UHGV virus genome: UHGV-0247086
Strand: one strand, 5' to 3'
Origin: a virus
DNA length: 60,779 nucleotides
The notes under the pieces are model-generated. The model ran no database searches. It worked only from the letters and a program-made list of their open reading frames with translations, and was not told the origin of the DNA. This document shows, piece by piece, positions 25,259-52,687 of this stretch. Position 1 is the stretch's first letter; each line of letters starts with the position of its first letter. Position numbers and translations under genes: made by a program.

Positions 25259-25496
25259 AGTTTGCTCACCTGCGAACCGTATGCAAGAGATCGCAGGTGA
25301 GCAATTCGCTATGAGGGCATTGCCATAGCTGAAAAATTTTAACCTCGCATTATTCGCAAAACCATCAAACAGCTAAAGCCTGAATACACTTTAAGACTTA
25401 CCTTACTCGTTACATCAATGTGTTACGGCAATGACATAAATTGATAGCCAGAACCTATATTGATCTGTCGCTCTGTTAAAACTACTGTATATAAAA

Positions 25497-26812
25497 GGGT
25501 CTTCCCTTGTTGTGGTGGCTGAAGGCATGATAATGGCGTATTAAATCGCCAGAGGTCACCACCATGGACGAAAAGTCCCTCTATGCACATATCCTCAACT
25601 TGTCAGCTCCGTGGCAGGTAAAGTCTCTTTCTCTCGATGAAAATGCCGCTTCTGTTACCGTTACTGTCGGAATCGCTGAAAATACTCAGTTAACCTGTCC
25701 AGCCTGCGGGAAATCCTGCCCCGTTCACGATCACCGGCATCGTAAATGGCGCCACCTCGATACCTGCCAGTTCGCCACGATAGTTGAAGCCAGTGTGCCC
25801 CGTGTTATGTGTCCGAAGCATGGATGCCAGACTTTGCCTGTTCCGTGGGCGGGGCCCGGCAGCCGGTATACGCTGCTGTTCGAATCATTCGTGCTTTCAT
25901 GGCTGAAAATCAGCACTGTTGATGCGGTCAGGAAACAACTCAAACTGAGCTGGAATGCCGTTGACGGCATTATGACCCGCGCGGTTAAACGAGGTCTTGC
26001 ACGCATAAAAAAGCCGTTAGCAGCCCGGCATATGAATGTGGACGAGGTCGCTTTTAAAAAAGGACATCGTTATATAACGGTGATCTCCGATCGTGACGGG
26101 CGGGCGCTGGCTTTAACGGATGATCGAGGTAAGGAAAGTCTTGCCGGTTACCTCAGAACCCTGACTGACGGACAGCTGCAGGCCATTAAAACGCTCTCAA
26201 TGGACATGAATGCGGGCTATATAAGAGCCGCGCGCATCCACTTACCGTGTGCAGTTGATAAAATCGCCTTTGACCGCTTCCACGTAGCGAAACAGCTGGG
26301 TGAGGTGGTGGATAAAACCCGCCAGAATGAACATCCCCGTCTTCCGGTTGAAAGCCGCCGTCAGGCCAAAGGTACCCGCTTCCTGTGGCAGTACAGCGAC
26401 AAATGGATGACTGAGTCCCGGCAGAAAAAGCTGATGTGGCTGCGGGAACAGATGCAGCAGACAAGCCAGTGCTGGACACTGAAAGAGCTGGCCAAAAATA
26501 TCTGGGATCGCCCCTGGAGCACAGAACGCAGGAATGACTGGTTGCAGTGGATATCGCTGGCGTCTCAATGTGATGTGCCGATGATGAAAAACGCAGCGAA
26601 AACCATCAAAAAACGGTTATATGGAATACTGAATGCGATGCATCATCGTGTCTCGAATGGTAATGCAGAGGCGCTGAACAGCAAGATCAGACTGCTGAGA
26701 ATAAAAGCCAGAGGATACAGGAACCGGGAGCGCTTTAAGCTGGGAGTGATGTTCCACTATGGAAAACTGAATATGGCGTTCTGAGTCTTCCCACCATGAT
26801 CGGGGAAGACCC
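25497..26812 (+). mobile_element. ISL3-family insertion sequence (1316 bp) with 8-bp TSD ATATAAAA, inserted into the umuDC LexA operator
   Basis: Terminal IRs GGGTCTTCCC...GGGAAGACCC. TSD at 25489-25496 and 26813-26820. Removing the IS and one TSD copy restores TACTGTATATAAAAACAGTG. Confidence 0.85.
25564..26784 (+). CDS. ISL3 family transposase
   Basis: 406 aa with an N-terminal zinc-finger (CPACGK...CPKHGC) and a DDE domain. Confidence 0.85.
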   Translation: MDEKSLYAHILNLSAPWQVKSLSLDENAASVTVTVGIAENTQLTCPACGKSCPVHDHRHRKWRHLDTCQFATIVEASVPRVMCPKHGCQTLPVPWAGPGSRYTLLFESFVLSWLKISTVDAVRKQLKLSWNAVDGIMTRAVKRGLARIKKPLAARHMNVDEVAFKKGHRYITVISDRDGRALALTDDRGKESLAGYLRTLTDGQLQAIKTLSMDMNAGYIRAARIHLPCAVDKIAFDRFHVAKQLGEVVDKTRQNEHPRLPVESRRQAKGTRFLWQYSDKWMTESRQKKLMWLREQMQQTSQCWTLKELAKNIWDRPWSTERRNDWLQWISLASQCDVPMMKNAAKTIKKRLYGILNAMHHRVSNGNAEALNSKIRLLRIKARGYRNRERFKLGVMFHYGKLNMAF

Positions 26813-26823
26813 ATATAAAAACA

Positions 26824-28745
26824 GTGTGCGCCGGGAGACCGGTAGAGATCAAGGGGTGAAAGTCCCCGACCATTGAAGGACCAGCAATCCACAAGGTCCC
26901 CGAGTCATGCGTTGCATACCGCGAGGTATGGGGCGAAGCGTTGACAGGGGTGTTGACAGGCCAGCCATTGAGCCACGAAATGTATATTAAATTACCGGGT
27001 GCCGACGTTGTACTGTTAACGGAAGGCAACATCATAGGGTGCGATACTGCGAGTGCCACATGGACCCGGCGGGGTCTGAGACCCTGGCATGTCAATACGA
27101 TCTCTACGCGGGAACCGGGAGATCTCCCCTCTGACCATCTGCCAGTGTCGGGGATGGCCCGCACCGGGAAGACGAGGAGTCATAGCCGGTGATGTACGGA
27201 GAGGAGAAGTCGGACTCGCTCATAGTAGCGGCGAAGCAGGCGAACAACCCGAAAGGAGCGGAGTCAGTGGAGCGAAGGAGCGGGGCCAAGGGGAACGCGG
27301 AACAGCCACACATGCGCCGGACACAGAGCCGGGAAAGCATGTCACAGAGGCTGTCACGCGTGCGGGAAGCTGCGAAGCAGCGGAAGAAAGAACGGTTTAC
27401 AGCATTGTTCCACCTGCTGACAGTCGAAGCACTGGAAGCCGCATTCCTCTCCCTGAGCAGGAAAGCGGCCGCCGGAGTGGATGGCATCAGGTGGATGGAC
27501 TACGCCGGAAACATGAAGAACAACATAACAGATCTGCACCGGAGGCTACATCAGGGCAGCTACAGGGCGCAGCCCGGCAGGCGTCACTACATCCCAAAAG
27601 CGGATGGAAAACAACGCCCGCTCGGCATCGCCTCGCTGGAGGACAAGATCGTCCAGTATGCGCTGGTGAAAATCCTGAACGCAGTCTATGAAAACGACTT
27701 TATGGGGTTCTCATACGGGTTCAGACCCGGGCGAAGCCAGCACGATGCACTGGACGCACTGGCCACAGGGCTGGTACGCACTAACGTAAACTGGGTACTG
27801 GATGCCGACATCAGTCAGTTCTTTGACAGGGTGAGCCATGAATGGCTGATCAGGTTCACAGAGCATCGGATCGGCGACCGGAGGGTAATCAGGCTCATAC
27901 GTAAGTGGCTCACAGCCGGGACGTCGGAGGAGGGTCAATGGCGAGCAACGGAGGAAGGCACCCCACAGGGTGCGGTCATCTCACCGCTGCTGGCAAACAT
28001 ATACCTCCACTACGTCTTCGATCTGTGGGCGCATCAGTGGCGACGTCGCTATGCCACAGGCAATGTGGTAATGGTCAGATACGCCGATGACATCGTCATC
28101 GGGTTCGACAAACGATACGATGCCCGGCGCTTCCGTATAGCCATGCAGCGCAGACTGAGGGAGTTCGGACTCACGGTTCACCCGGAGAAAACCCGTCTGA
28201 TGGAGTTCGGCCGCTTCGCTGCCGAAAACCGTGCCATCAGGGGAAAAGGCAAACCAGAAACGTTCAACTTCCTCGGGTTCACGCACATCAGCGGGAAAGA
28301 TCGCAACGGCAGGTTCATGCTGATACGAAAGACCCGCCGGGATCGGATGACGGCAACTCTGAAAGCCATCAAAGACGGTCTGCGAAGGCGCTGGCATTAC
28401 TCAATCCCCGAACAGGGAAAATGGCTCAGGAGAGTGGTTCAGGGATACCTGAACTATCACTCGGTACCGGGCAACTTCCCCACCATGCAGAAGTTCAGGA
28501 CACACGTAACAAACCTCTGGCGCCGGGCGCTCAGGCGCAGGAGCCAGAAGGATGATACGACCTGGACGAAAGCAAACAAACTGGCAGCCGCATGGCTACC
28601 AGGGGTTCGGGTTCTTCATCCATGGCCTGTGGAGCGGTTCACCGCCAGACACCCGAGGCAGGAGCCCGGTGCGTAAATCGCGCACGCCGGGATCTGTGCG
28701 GGGGGTATCCGGTAACGGGTATCCCTACCGCGACATTAATCTGAG
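26824..28745 (+). mobile_element. bacterial group II intron (5' end GUGUG/GUGCG at 26824-26830; 3' end uncertain), sense to umuDC
   Basis: GTGYG 5' end, intron-encoded RT/maturase ORF, and a 34-nt DV-like hairpin (14 bp, 2-nt bulge, GUAA loop) at 28698-28731 just after the ORF. Confidence 0.7.
27189..28676 (+). CDS. group II intron-encoded reverse transcriptase/maturase (no endonuclease domain evident)
   Basis: RT motifs ([29 protein letters not shown]) including YADD, followed by a maturase X-like region. The true start is probably internal. Confidence 0.85.
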
Positions 28746-28756
28746 CGAGTCAATTA

Positions 28757-29175
28757 TGCAGTTTTACACGCCCGTTGAGTTACGTGAGATCATGCTGATC
28801 CCGTTGTACAGTGACCTTGTGCAATGTGGTTTTCCAAGCCCTGCACAGGATTATGTTGAGCAACGTATCGATCTGAACGAGTTGCTCATTAACCACCCCA
28901 GTGCGACGTATTTTGTCAAAGCCGCCGGCGACAGCATGAAAGACGCCGGCATAGGGGAAGGGGATCTTCTGGTTGTGGATAGCTCAAGGACAGCAGTTCA
29001 TGGCGATATCGTTATTGCTGCTGTGGATGGGGAATTTACCGTTAAGAAGCTGCAGCTGCATCCGCGGGTTCAGCTTAACCCAATGAACCCTGCATATTCG
29101 CCGATAGTCGTGGGTAGCGAGGATACTCTCGATGTGTTCGGGGTCGTAACTTACATCATCAAATCGGCTGGCTGA
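28757..29175 (+). CDS. umuD: translesion DNA polymerase V accessory subunit UmuD (LexA-like S24 peptidase)
   Basis: Collinear with UmuD by recall: N-terminal [23 protein letters not shown], and the catalytic Ser (GDSM) and Lys (VKKL). Confidence 0.9.
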
Positions 29176-29176
29176 G

Positions 29177-30442
29177 ATGTTTGCACTTTGCGATGTGAAC
29201 TCATTTTATGCATCGTGCGAGACCGTATTTCGTCCTGACCTGAAAGGGCGTCCGGTGGTCGTCCTGTCAAACAACGACGGCTGCGAGATCGCCCGTTCAC
29301 AAGAGGCAAAGCCCTTTGTCAAAATGGGCGAGCCTTATTTCAAGCAAAAGGACATGTTTCGCCGGCACGGTATTATCGCGTTTAGCAGCAACTATGAGCT
29401 TTATGCCGATATGTCCAACCGAGTGATGACAACGCTGGAGGAACTCTCTCCACGCTGCGAAATTTACAGTATTGATGAGGCATTTTGCGATCTTACAGGT
29501 GTGCGTAACTGTCGCGATCTTACCGACTTTGGCAGAGAAATTCGCGAGACAGTTCTGCGTAGGACGCACCTCACGGTCGGCGTCGGCATAGCCCAGACTA
29601 AAACCCTGGCGAAGCTGGCCAATCATGCTGCGAAACAGTGGCAGCTACAGACCGGAGGAGTGGTGGATCTGTCTAATCTTGAAAGGCAGAGGAAGTTGAT
29701 GGCTTTGCTGCCGGTGGATGAGGTCTGGGGCGTCGGGCGCCGCATCAGTAAAAAACTTGAGGCCATGGGGATTAAAACTGTGCTGCAGTTGGCGGATACC
29801 GATATCCGTTTTATCCGGAAGCATTTCAACGTCGTGTTGGAAAGAACTGTGCGGGAGCTGCGCGGCGAACCATGCCTTGGCCTTGAGGAGTTCGCGCCGG
29901 TAAAGCAGGAAATCGTGTGCAGCCGTTCGTTCGGCGGCCGTATCACTGAATACCATGAGATGAGGCAGGCGATATGCAGCTACGCCTCACGTGCCGCGGA
30001 GAAACTCCGTGGTGAGCACCAGTATTGCGGATTTATCTCCGCATTTGTCAAAACCAGCCCCTTTGCGCTGAACGAGCCGTACTATGGGAACAGCGCATCG
30101 GTAAAGCTGTTAACCCCAACGCAAGACAGCAGGGACATAATCACCGCAGCGACCAAATGCCTCGATGTAATCTGGCGAGAGGGGCATCGCTATCAGAAAG
30201 CAGGCGTTATGCTGGGGGATTTCTACAGTCAGGGCGTGGCCCAGCTCAACCTCTTCGACGACAACGCACCACGGAAGAATAGCGAGAAACTGATGGAAGT
30301 TCTCGACCATCTCAATGCGAAAGGCGGAAGAGGAACTCTGTATTTTGCAGGGCAGGGGATCCAGACTGCCTGGCAGATGAAGCGGGAAATGCTTTCGCCT
30401 CGGTACACCACGAGATACAGTGACTTGATACATGTGAGATGA
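29177..30442 (+). CDS. umuC: translesion DNA polymerase V catalytic subunit UmuC (Y-family polymerase)
   Basis: MFALCDVNSFYASCE Y-family N-terminus, 421 aa, immediately downstream of umuD. Confidence 0.9.
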   Translation: MFALCDVNSFYASCETVFRPDLKGRPVVVLSNNDGCEIARSQEAKPFVKMGEPYFKQKDMFRRHGIIAFSSNYELYADMSNRVMTTLEELSPRCEIYSIDEAFCDLTGVRNCRDLTDFGREIRETVLRRTHLTVGVGIAQTKTLAKLANHAAKQWQLQTGGVVDLSNLERQRKLMALLPVDEVWGVGRRISKKLEAMGIKTVLQLADTDIRFIRKHFNVVLERTVRELRGEPCLGLEEFAPVKQEIVCSRSFGGRITEYHEMRQAICSYASRAAEKLRGEHQYCGFISAFVKTSPFALNEPYYGNSASVKLLTPTQDSRDIITAATKCLDVIWREGHRYQKAGVMLGDFYSQGVAQLNLFDDNAPRKNSEKLMEVLDHLNAKGGRGTLYFAGQGIQTAWQMKREMLSPRYTTRYSDLIHVR

Positions 30443-31349: not shown

Positions 31350-32021
31350 CTATATTAATTTCTCTATTAATTCCGCCCCCTGATTTTTCACATTACCCAC
31401 GGCGCGCGTCACGGCGTGCCAGATAAACTTGTCGGCTGGCACTGCTCCGTCGGCTGCTATCTCTTCGGCTTCCTTCCCGCCTATATCCTGCCTTATCCAT
31501 TCCCGCGCGGCTGCGGGCGCCAAGACCAGCGGCCGGCGGTCATGAATATCTACGAGCCCTTGATCTGCTGCCGCGGTCACTATCAAAAACCCTTCGGCTT
31601 CGTCGCCGCGCTCAAAAGGCACGCTACCGATCGCCGCCATGAAGATTGGCTGGCCGTCGGCGCGATGAATAAAGTAAGGCTGCTTCTTGTCTCCTTCGCG
31701 CTTCCATTCAAACCAGCCATCAGCAAAACATATCGCACGACCGTGCTGCCACAGAGGTTTAAACATTCTGCTGTTGGCTGCGGTCTCAACCCTGGCATTA
31801 ATCAACGGTGGTTTATCCCACCACCCGGGTGCGTAACCACAGTGAACCGGATCGAGGTGCAGCTGTTCGTCTAGTTCGCTCAGGAGCAAAACTTTAGTCC
31901 CCGGCGCCACGTTGTAACGCCCAATCGGCTCAGGGTCGTATGCGATGTCGCGCTCGGCTTCATCCGCTAGGTATGCCAGATATTCTTCACGGGTTTGGGA
32001 TTGAGCAAATCGTCCGCACAT
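31350..32021 (-). CDS. SOS-response associated peptidase (SRAP/YedK family, abasic-site binding)
   Basis: Starts MCGRFAQ (catalytic Cys2). 223 aa with typical SRAP motifs. Confidence 0.85.
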   Translation of the reverse strand: MCGRFAQSQTREEYLAYLADEAERDIAYDPEPIGRYNVAPGTKVLLLSELDEQLHLDPVHCGYAPGWWDKPPLINARVETAANSRMFKPLWQHGRAICFADGWFEWKREGDKKQPYFIHRADGQPIFMAAIGSVPFERGDEAEGFLIVTAAADQGLVDIHDRRPLVLAPAAAREWIRQDIGGKEAEEIAADGAVPADKFIWHAVTRAVGNVKNQGAELIEKLI

Positions 32022-49373: not shown

Positions 49374-49399
49374 GGTATACTGTTTATTTGTACAGTATT
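49374..49399 (+). promoter_or_regulatory. LexA (SOS) box upstream of dinI-like gene
   Basis: TACTGTTTATTTGTACAGTA, a perfect CTGT-N8-ACAG, about 20 nt upstream of the RBS. Confidence 0.65.
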
Positions 49400-49416: not shown

Positions 49417-49650
49417 ATGAAAGTTGAAGTCACAATTGATAAACATAAAAAACTCCCTGATGGCGCCATACCTGCGCTTGAGCAAGAATTGCTGCGCCGC
49501 TTGTCCCAGTCCTATGATGATTGCAAATTAACCATTCGACGCACAAGCAACGATGGCCTTAGCGTTTTGGGTGGCGCTGATGGCGATAAAAAACGCGTTG
49601 AACAAATCCTGCAAGAGACGTGGGAAAGCGCGGACGACTGGTTTTACTGA
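49417..49650 (+). CDS. dinI: DinI-family DNA damage-inducible protein
   Basis: MKVEVTIDK...LSVLGGADGDKKRVEQILQETWESADDWF collinear with E. coli DinI. RBS GAGGTG. Confidence 0.85.
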   Translation: MKVEVTIDKHKKLPDGAIPALEQELLRRLSQSYDDCKLTIRRTSNDGLSVLGGADGDKKRVEQILQETWESADDWFY

Positions 49651-52611: not shown

Positions 52612-52687
52612 GCTGGTTTAGCTCAGAAGGTAGAGCGCCTGCCTTGTAAGCAGGATGTCGGCTGTTCGATTCCGTCAACCAGCACCA
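52612..52687 (+). tRNA. tRNA-Thr (anticodon UGU), phage-encoded, between Q and the lysis region
   Basis: 76 nt cloverleaf: acceptor GCTGGTT/AACCAGC, D arm GCTC/GAGC with GG, anticodon stem CCTGC/GCAGG with loop CTTGTAA, T loop TTCGATT, and 3' CCA. One U-C mismatch in the T stem. Confidence 0.65.

Follow-up and report, generated by a model that had tools for sequence, protein, structure and literature searches.

Upstream of a umuDC-like operon in the virus genome UHGV-0247086, a group II intron lies at the LexA operator of the umuD leader, which raises the question of whether this intron is an intact and mobile element and what its position at an SOS box means. The stretch was analyzed at its full length of 60,779 nt (hereafter the window); all coordinates are positions in this window, and H and L numbers (e.g., H40, L007) denote comparison sequences and loci. 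Our answer, held with considerable confidence, is that the window carries a complete and probably still active copy of Kl.pn.I5, an IIB-like intron lacking an endonuclease (En-minus), which retrohomed into the LexA operator in front of the operon. We further propose, as a plausible reading that still falls short of probable, that Kl.pn.I5 and its relatives constitute a lineage whose exon-binding sequences (EBS) are tuned to the LexA operator, and that the intron thereby joins the SOS regulon and is transcribed upon DNA damage.

Identity, ends and completeness of the intron

The intron ends were placed by aligning the flanks of copies from first 7 and then 17 loci in differing contexts. Similarity across these contexts begins and stops exactly at positions 26826 and 28734 on the plus strand, defining an intron of 1909 nt that opens with GUGCG (26826–26830) and closes with CCGCGAC, the final GAC occupying 28732–28734; these termini fit the group II pattern of 5' GUGYG and 3' AY, the last two nucleotides being AC. 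The letters GTGTGCG do stand at 26824–26830, as the initial annotation had read them (GUGUG/GUGCG), and a start at the GTGTG of 26824 was rejected because the flank comparisons put it at 26826; the end proposed there, 28757, likewise moves to 28734.

Over its 1909 nt, the window intron is 99.8% identical to the copy of Kl.pn.I5 on Klebsiella pneumoniae plasmid pK245 (NC_010886.1; H40/L007), which is the reference copy for this element in the Zimmerly group II intron database (PMC3522654). Under the database's naming rule (>95% identity to the reference copy) the window copy bears the same name, and we see no difference in the element itself. Kl.pn.I5 has been equated with Se.ma.I1 (PMC6764390) and is also present on Serratia marcescens plasmid NC_005211.1; K. 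pneumoniae MGH78578 carries 1910-nt copies, for which plasmid-to-chromosome retrohoming has been inferred (PMC3522654). The full copies checked here all measure 1909 nt. Four positions set the window copy apart from the consensus of 47 full-length copies, and none of them falls in domain V (DV), domain VI (DVI) or the EBS elements.

Empty sites corroborate these boundaries. Joining the 120 + 120 nt flanks of the Escherichia coli chromosomal umuDC copies (L001, L002) gives 240 nt that are 100% identical to intron-less E. coli, and the umuDC site is uninterrupted in 5321 of 5426 complete E. coli genomes; an intron-less relative of the window locus (H159) matches at 90.8%. Because the joined E. 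coli flanks equal the empty site, the insertion is precise and without target duplication, as retrohoming would give. The initial annotation had entertained a truncated intron, a view contradicted both by the length, which is that of the other full copies, and by the exact restoration of the empty site at the same bounds. Two new insertions of Kl.pn.I5 arose within one hospital outbreak (10.1101/2021.03.02.433680), so the element is mobile today; the presence of identical copies at many sites is further, indirect evidence of retrohoming. It is also very common, being found in 4313 plasmid records, mostly from clinical Klebsiella (3778 records are Klebsiella), and in 219 of the 5426 complete E. 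coli genomes.

The intron encodes a reverse transcriptase (RT)/maturase of 495 aa (27189–28676, plus strand) with a YADD motif at 28080–28091 and no endonuclease domain, all as initially described. The protein matches RVT_1 (Pfam) and TIGR04416 (group II RT/maturase; 376 bits against a cutoff of 300, aa 81–451), its closest solved structures are group II RTs, and an identical protein occurs in 1944 blocks of the assembly collection, marking a widespread allele. Domain I was recognized at 26859–27084 (plus strand) by Rfam model RF02005 (group-II-D1D4-6), with 186.6 bits against a gathering score of 49, E = 1e-54 and full-length coverage of model positions 1–225, in keeping with a domain I–IV ribozyme fold. 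The RF02005 and TIGR04416 matches, together with the missing endonuclease domain, confirm the earlier call of a group II intron with an En-minus RT/maturase.

Domains V and VI and the 3' end

The 3' boundary had been called problematic because the hairpin at 28698–28731 was taken for a DV-like element lying only 25 nt from the umuD start codon. The description of this hairpin stands (14 bp, a 2-nt bulge and a GUAA loop), as the gap nearly does (24 nt from the hairpin, and 21 nt from the intron end, to the ATG at 28756), but its identity does not. An alignment of the last 80 nt of 77 family members, whose RTs are 56–99% identical, identifies it as DVI, from its covariation and from an invariant bulged A near the 3' end, and places the true DV just upstream at 28662–28694 (plus strand), 4 nt away. 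Since the misnamed hairpin is DVI and the true DV precedes it, the 3' end is normal: the splice site lies 21 nt before the umuD ATG, not deep within umuD, and the intron ends in AC.

DV was assigned from covariation and the minimum free energy (MFE) fold. It has an AGC triad (28663–28665), an AC bulge (28684–28685) and a 5-nt terminal loop, AAAUC (28675–28679), and conforms to the alignment consensus GAGCC-NNNU-GCG-loop-CGC-AC-G-NNN-GGAUC; among the 77 relatives its 12 pairs are paired in 99.9% of alignment cells, 6 of them with compensatory changes. DVI (28698–28731, plus strand) comprises 14 pairs that are paired in 98–99% of cells, 9 with compensatory changes, and its bulge is formed by U28726 and A28727. 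The latter base is an A in all 77 sequences and lies 7 nt from the 3' splice site, making it the predicted branch point. Taken jointly, the two domains show standard pairs in 99.4% of cells and changes on both sides in 15 of 26 pairs, compared with 36–46% standard pairs in slid controls, and the single-sequence MFE fold yields the same helices (z = -4.0).

The stop codon of the RT/maturase open reading frame (ORF), TAA at 28674–28676, lies within the DV loop and is replaced by TGA in 92%-identical variants. In many relatives (L025–L101), the RT frame continues to the GUAA loop of DVI, such that the last 10–25 codons are encoded by DV and DVI. The corrected DV and DVI, combined with the pairing map given below, supply exact annotation rules for a very frequent element labeled 'ltrA'.

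LexA boxes as the homing site of the lineage

Flanks came from three sources: annotated matches, contigs whose RT is identical to that of the window, and 67 contigs of viral or prophage origin. A strict CTGT-N8-ACAG palindrome ending at position -2 occurs in 57 of 67 distinct 30-nt 5' flanks, and a relaxed form in 61, with many of the 67 representing homologous loci and hence fewer independent insertion events than flanks. The cut within the box is always ...ACAGT/A (the slash marks the insertion point), between bp 19 and 20 of the 20-bp box TACTGTATATAAAAACAGT/A and 1 nt past the 16-bp core. Occupied sites include the chromosomal umuDC of E. coli and Klebsiella, a GyrI-like (probable sbmC) gene, umuDC on IncF plasmids, many dinI-like prophage genes and S24-repressor regions of prophages. 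The intron runs antisense to umuD on pK245 and on IncF(K) plasmids, where it entered the palindrome from the other side. Clear non-box sites number only two, in gltS (L003) and in a BCCT transporter gene (L004).

This habit extends to diverged relatives. Among 80 loci encoding RT relatives, every intron with a readable flank and an RT identity of at least 69% sits in a LexA-type palindrome. The hosts of these relatives are Citrobacter, K. michiganensis (L024, a near-box of the form GTGT-N8-ACAG), Janthinobacterium, Herbaspirillum, Burkholderia cenocepacia, Trinickia, Paraburkholderia and two Burkholderiales metagenome-assembled genomes; in Janthinobacterium, Herbaspirillum, Burkholderia, Trinickia and Paraburkholderia, LexA boxes are occupied at RT identities of 69–74%. 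At identities of 66% or below, introns lie in unrelated sequences. When RT identities are clustered by average linkage, the box-targeting introns form a single group in the resulting tree. Judged from these flanks, SOS-box homing is a property of the lineage and not chance; the earlier suggestion that the LexA operator served as the intron's target is upheld by the 57 strict boxes and the clade survey alike.

Two further observations concern individual boxes. IncF(K) plasmid variants L019 and L020, which are 90–91% identical and carry ORF insertions of 24 and 48 nt (total lengths 1933 and 1957 nt), share a perfectly palindromic umuD box, CTGTATATATATACAGT/A, with the intron antisense to umuD. 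The window itself contains a second, unoccupied LexA box, TACTGTTTATTTGTACAGTA, at 49378–49397, 19 nt upstream of a dinI-like ORF (49417–49650; MKVEVTIDKHKKLP...). This box differs from the occupied prophage sites TACTGTTTATTTATACAGT/A (e.g., L102, L115, L137) only at position -7, which is G here and A in 64 of the 67 occupied sites.

Recognition of the target by base pairing

Every domain I alignment column of 47 introns was scored for complementarity to each exon position. Exon positions -1 to -5 pair with 27012–27016 in 98–100% of these introns, with 5–6 pair types each, and -6 pairs with 27017 in 79%. Covariation with the last 5–6 nt of the 5' exon thus places EBS1 at 27012–27017 (plus strand; ACUGUU), in the terminal loop of a domain I hairpin, and its partner, intron-binding sequence (IBS) 1, at 26820–26825 (plus strand; AACAGT, -6 to -1), the right half-site of the LexA box. 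For position +1 the best column is 27077 (94% paired, 87% Watson–Crick, 5 pair types), which gives EBS3 as U27077 and IBS3 as A28735 (both plus strand), the first base of the 3' exon and the 20th base of the SOS box. The best columns for -8, -9 and -10 are 26982, 26983 and 26984, an alignment that extends to EBS2 (26983–26987, plus strand; UAUAU) and its partner IBS2 (26813–26817, plus strand; ATATA, -13 to -9); in the window, IBS2 lies inside the second copy of the target-site duplication (26813–26820) of an insertion sequence (IS) described below. Support is strong for EBS1 and EBS3 and moderate for EBS2, as the EBS2 loop has alignment indels.

The complementarity is maintained where the sequences themselves differ, for example, CGCAGU/ACUGCG in L034, AACUUAC/GUAAGUU in L035 and CGACAA/UUGUCG in L043; within the SOS-box clade, examples are CCUGUAU/AUACAGG in L045 and, with a one-base shift, UACUGUG/CACAGUA in L032. 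On this covariation, the site is read by RNA–DNA pairing, with the right half-site as IBS1, the AT-rich spacer as IBS2 and the last A as IBS3. The IBS/EBS pairing raised in the initial annotation was found for all three elements.

Head-to-tail tandem copies of the intron were observed in L117 (6088–13723, with four starts exactly 1909 nt apart) and L147 (1103–4920), as well as in L034 and L047; these are possibly assembly artefacts. Re-homing at the intron's own 5' junction would be possible because IBS2 and IBS1 persist there and the +1 position, G, can wobble with U27077.

Promoter, LexA control and a proposed link to the SOS response

The consequences of insertion depend on where transcription begins. 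In 44 of 72 distinct flanks, TTGA stands exactly at -42, 17 nt upstream of TACTGT, with a spacer of variable sequence between them. This spacing suggests that TTGAYC is the -35 element and the left half-site TACTGT the -10 element, with transcription predicted to start at about -8 to -6; in the window, the putative -35 of the umuDC-like promoter, read from sequence, is TTGATC at 25460–25465 (plus strand). The only base of the box altered by insertion is bp 20 (A to G), so that CTGT-N8-ACAG is kept and the 5' junction (TACTGTATATAAAAACAGTG) preserves 19 of 20 bp; LexA may accordingly still bind the box after insertion. In approximately 20 of 34 sites, an ATG-initiated ORF in the sense orientation begins 14–23 nt past the intron and encodes a umuD, GyrI-like or dinI-like gene.

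We propose that, by analogy with RmInt1, an intron without an endonuclease would reverse-splice into transient single-stranded DNA at replication forks, with the nascent strand serving as primer. The palindrome would present an ACAGT/A half-site on either strand and would therefore be usable whichever direction the fork travels. Because insertion alters only the last base of the box and keeps both the -35 and the TACTGT -10, a sense-oriented intron would lie a few nucleotides past the start site of a LexA-repressed promoter and be transcribed from it; the 5' exon of such a transcript would be just IBS1. Splicing by EBS1–IBS1 pairing alone, as seen for IIE and IIF introns in vitro (PMC3753933), would allow a transcript with a 5' exon of 6–8 nt to splice.

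Were this so, the lineage would possess a homing site that is conserved, present in many copies and carried about by plasmids, prophages and islands. As a palindrome, the site would serve on the lagging-strand template whichever way replication runs; intron transcription would coincide with stalled forks and with LexA release from free target boxes. Expression from invaded LexA promoters would couple retromobility to the SOS response. DNA damage, including SOS induced by antibiotics, would then be tied in a concrete and testable way to the spread of a retroelement that rides on resistance plasmids.

Points against the proposal and alternative explanations

Several points weigh against this reading, beginning with the homology of many of the sampled flanks mentioned above. 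A sigma-70 scan called neither the umuD promoter, whose TACTGT matches TATAAT at too few positions (3 of 6) to be picked up, nor an outward promoter at the IS end, and the predicted transcription start derives from hexamer spacing only. If TATAAC/TATTAA across the insertion point were the true -10, the intron would destroy the promoter. Splicing, LexA binding at the junction and SOS induction of the intron are likewise deduced from sequence. The left half-site TACTGT (-19 to -14) is conserved like IBS1, at 1.3–1.9 bits per position, and no RNA partner was found for it in the column scan. It may be read by protein, or merely carried along as most genomic matches to IBS2 plus IBS1 are LexA boxes; distal 5'-exon positions are read by protein in RmInt1 and Ll.LtrB. 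A rough information-content estimate gives about 4 chance non-box matches per genome, more than the 2–4 of 67 non-box sites seen, in a sample biased toward prophages and plasmids. Finally, Rfam RF00029 (DV-DVI) found no match in 2.2 kb even at E <= 10, a failure likely due to a G.A instead of a G.U pair at the triad and to the 5-nt loop, both features of the whole family. Of the covariance models, RF02005 thus captured domain I, whereas DV and DVI were set by comparative alignment instead.

The RF00029 miss, together with the 24 nt left between the hairpin at 28698–28731 and the umuD ATG, is what could still recommend an intron that is truncated or aberrant at its 3' end, unable to splice and inert in the umuD leader. 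This reading is already refuted on structural grounds and we consider it very improbable: a canonical DV, with its AGC triad and AC bulge, immediately precedes the hairpin, which is itself DVI, and both domains carry compensatory changes in the 77 relatives. Length and ends equal those of all other copies, the empty site is restored exactly, and the intact ORF encodes the protein of the common allele. A different objection accepts a functional intron and denies it any preference, supposing that one ancient insertion beside umuDC was spread by plasmids, so that the association with SOS boxes is merely inherited. The abundance of the intron on plasmids, above all those of Klebsiella, and the many flanks that are homologous umuD or dinI-like loci would accord with such hitch-hiking. 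We find it scarcely credible, as identical intron ends recur in non-homologous contexts, namely the E. coli chromosomal umuDC (empty in most genomes), the GyrI-like gene and prophage repressor regions; the intron occurs in both orientations relative to umuD; diverged Burkholderiales relatives occupy unrelated LexA boxes; and new insertions arose within an outbreak (10.1101/2021.03.02.433680).

It is also conceivable that the operator is recognized by its shape, as a DNA hairpin, in the way that IIC introns use terminator and attC stem-loops, and the initial annotation had pointed to hairpin motifs. The targets are indeed palindromic, the lack of an endonuclease makes use of single-stranded DNA probable, and the left arm CTGT (-17 to -14) is highly conserved (1.6–1.9 bits per position) with no RNA partner found. 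Against this, the 3' arm of the palindrome is IBS1, which covaries with EBS1 across the 47 introns and cannot pair with EBS1 and sit in a hairpin at once. IIC introns place the hairpin before IBS1 and lack the EBS2 that Kl.pn.I5 has. Non-palindromic sites are used as well (L003 in gltS, L004 in the BCCT gene), and relatives with other EBS1 sequences enter non-palindromic sites. Structure-directed targeting is therefore unlikely, and recognition by base pairing remains the reading we prefer.

Organization of the window locus

The initial annotation described a restored LexA palindrome immediately before the intron. The operator of the umuD leader is indeed the target, and the intron is sense to umuDC as stated, but the palindrome is not contiguous: an IS separates its halves. 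The left part, TACTGTATATAAAA, occupies 25483–25496 (plus strand) and contains TACTGT, the predicted -10; the right part occupies 26813–26825. Between them lies an ISL3-family element resembling ISCfr12 (25497–26812, plus strand; 1316 bp), with a transposase ORF at 25564–26784 and terminal inverted repeats beginning GGGTCTTCCC. The assignment draws on Pfam matches to DDE_Tnp_ISL3, HTH_Tnp_ISL3 and Zn_ribbon_ISL3 and on matching plasmids, where the transposase is annotated as belonging to the ISCfr12 family. An 8-bp direct repeat, ATATAAAA, borders the IS on each side (25489–25496 and 26813–26820); the element interrupts the AT-rich spacer of the box and points the same way as the intron and umuDC.

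Around the intron, the window reads ...ATATAAAAACAGT at the end of the 5' exon and A at the start of the 3' exon, while the sequence upstream of the IS reads ...AACTACTGTATATAAAA. Removal of both elements yields TACTGTATATAAAAACAGTA, identical to the E. coli umuDC SOS box in L001 and L002. In other Klebsiella genomes (L008, L011, L017), the intron-bearing locus occurs without the IS and reads AACTACTGTATATAAAAACAGT up to the insertion point, indicating that the intron came first and the IS later. The arrangement of left box, IS, right box and intron recurs on several Klebsiella plasmids (H141–H145). As read here, the operator is destroyed in the window and SOS control is lost at this locus: the old promoter would fire into the IS, leaving the intron and umuDC to be reached by read-through only. 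Splicing from a read-through transcript would remain possible because the duplicated ATATAAAA keeps IBS2 beside IBS1.

Downstream of the intron lie a umuD-like gene (28756–29175, plus strand), encoding a 139-aa protein with matches to Peptidase_S24 and NF007621 (Pol V autoproteolytic subunit, 167.6 bits), and a umuC-like gene (29177–30442, plus strand), encoding a 421-aa protein with IMS, IMS_C and DUF4113 domains and a match to NF002955 (UmuC, 855 bits). The insertion thus has a bearing on how error-prone polymerase V is controlled on resistance plasmids, where its genes end up behind a 1.9-kb intron. Approximately 0.9 kb downstream of umuC, a 223-aa ORF on the minus strand (31350–32021), starting MCGRFAQ, matches NCBIfam PRK09951 ('hypothetical protein', 459 bits) and presumably resembles an SOS-response-associated peptidase of the YedK/SRAP type. 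A tRNA gene is present at 52612–52684 (Rfam RF00005, 64.3 bits). Together, the tRNA, IS, intron, umuDC and dinI-like gene suggest that the window is a genomic island or prophage region.

Novelty and comparison with known introns

The element itself is known, catalogued and ordinary, and the earlier puzzle of its 3' end is resolved. Known niches of bacterial group II introns comprise terminators, attC sites, insertion sequences and conserved genes; a transcription-factor operator as the homing site of a whole intron clade would be a new one. In the literature searched, which covered few subscription-journal papers, no paper linking group II introns to SOS or LexA boxes as a target was found. 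A homing-site consensus from -25 to +10 has been derived from three Kl.pn.I5 copies in a text that makes no reference to SOS, LexA or umuD (PMC3522654). The operator-homing habit of the clade is thus apparently unreported.

With regard to class, the intron has EBS3 and not delta, an IIB-like organization. A delta–delta' pairing of the IIA type was rejected, as an invariant U precedes EBS1 and does not vary with +1, while U27077 follows +1. A hint of an RmInt1-like class D intron, given by blastn matches to rhizobial plasmids, did not hold up, those matches belonging to the same family of approximately 500-aa RTs (L021, L047) and not to RmInt1.

RmInt1, a class D intron of Sinorhizobium meliloti, nevertheless offers a functional parallel, sharing with Kl.pn.I5 an RT/maturase without D/En domains; the likeness is one of domain content. 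It serves as the paradigm of retrohoming without an endonuclease, entering the lagging-strand template at replication forks, and recognizes its target through EBS1, EBS2 and EBS3 pairing plus a few protein-read distal 5'-exon positions. Its protein, at 419 aa, is shorter than the Kl.pn.I5 RT, and its target is an insertion sequence, ISRm2011-2, whereas that of Kl.pn.I5 is a regulatory operator.

Similar in architecture are the class E/F (IIE/IIF) introns, such as Cl.be.I2 and Pe.th.I2, in which EBS1–IBS1 pairing alone sets the 5' splice site in vitro (PMC3753933). Kl.pn.I5 is not listed in the text or supplements of PMC3552965, and we liken it to class E/F, as a candidate member, by features of the ribozyme and protein: both are IIB-like with EBS1, EBS2 and EBS3, both have a small ribozyme (approximately 420–480 nt outside the ORF in the comparison, approximately 420 nt in the window intron), both have a 5-nt DV loop instead of a tetraloop, and both lack an endonuclease. 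They differ in that the Kl.pn.I5 ORF runs into DV and, in many relatives, into the DVI loop. The IIC and IIC-attC introns (PMC3001079) share with Kl.pn.I5 the bacterial En-minus character and a niche made up of a class of conserved, repeated DNA motifs (for IIC, terminators and attC sites) instead of a single gene. Class IIC membership was rejected given the presence of EBS2 and a 6-nt IBS1 that is itself the 3' arm of the palindrome: IIC introns use a stem-loop upstream of a 3–4 nt IBS1 and have no EBS2 (PMC3001079), whereas Kl.pn.I5 reads its operator through 12 nt of base pairing.

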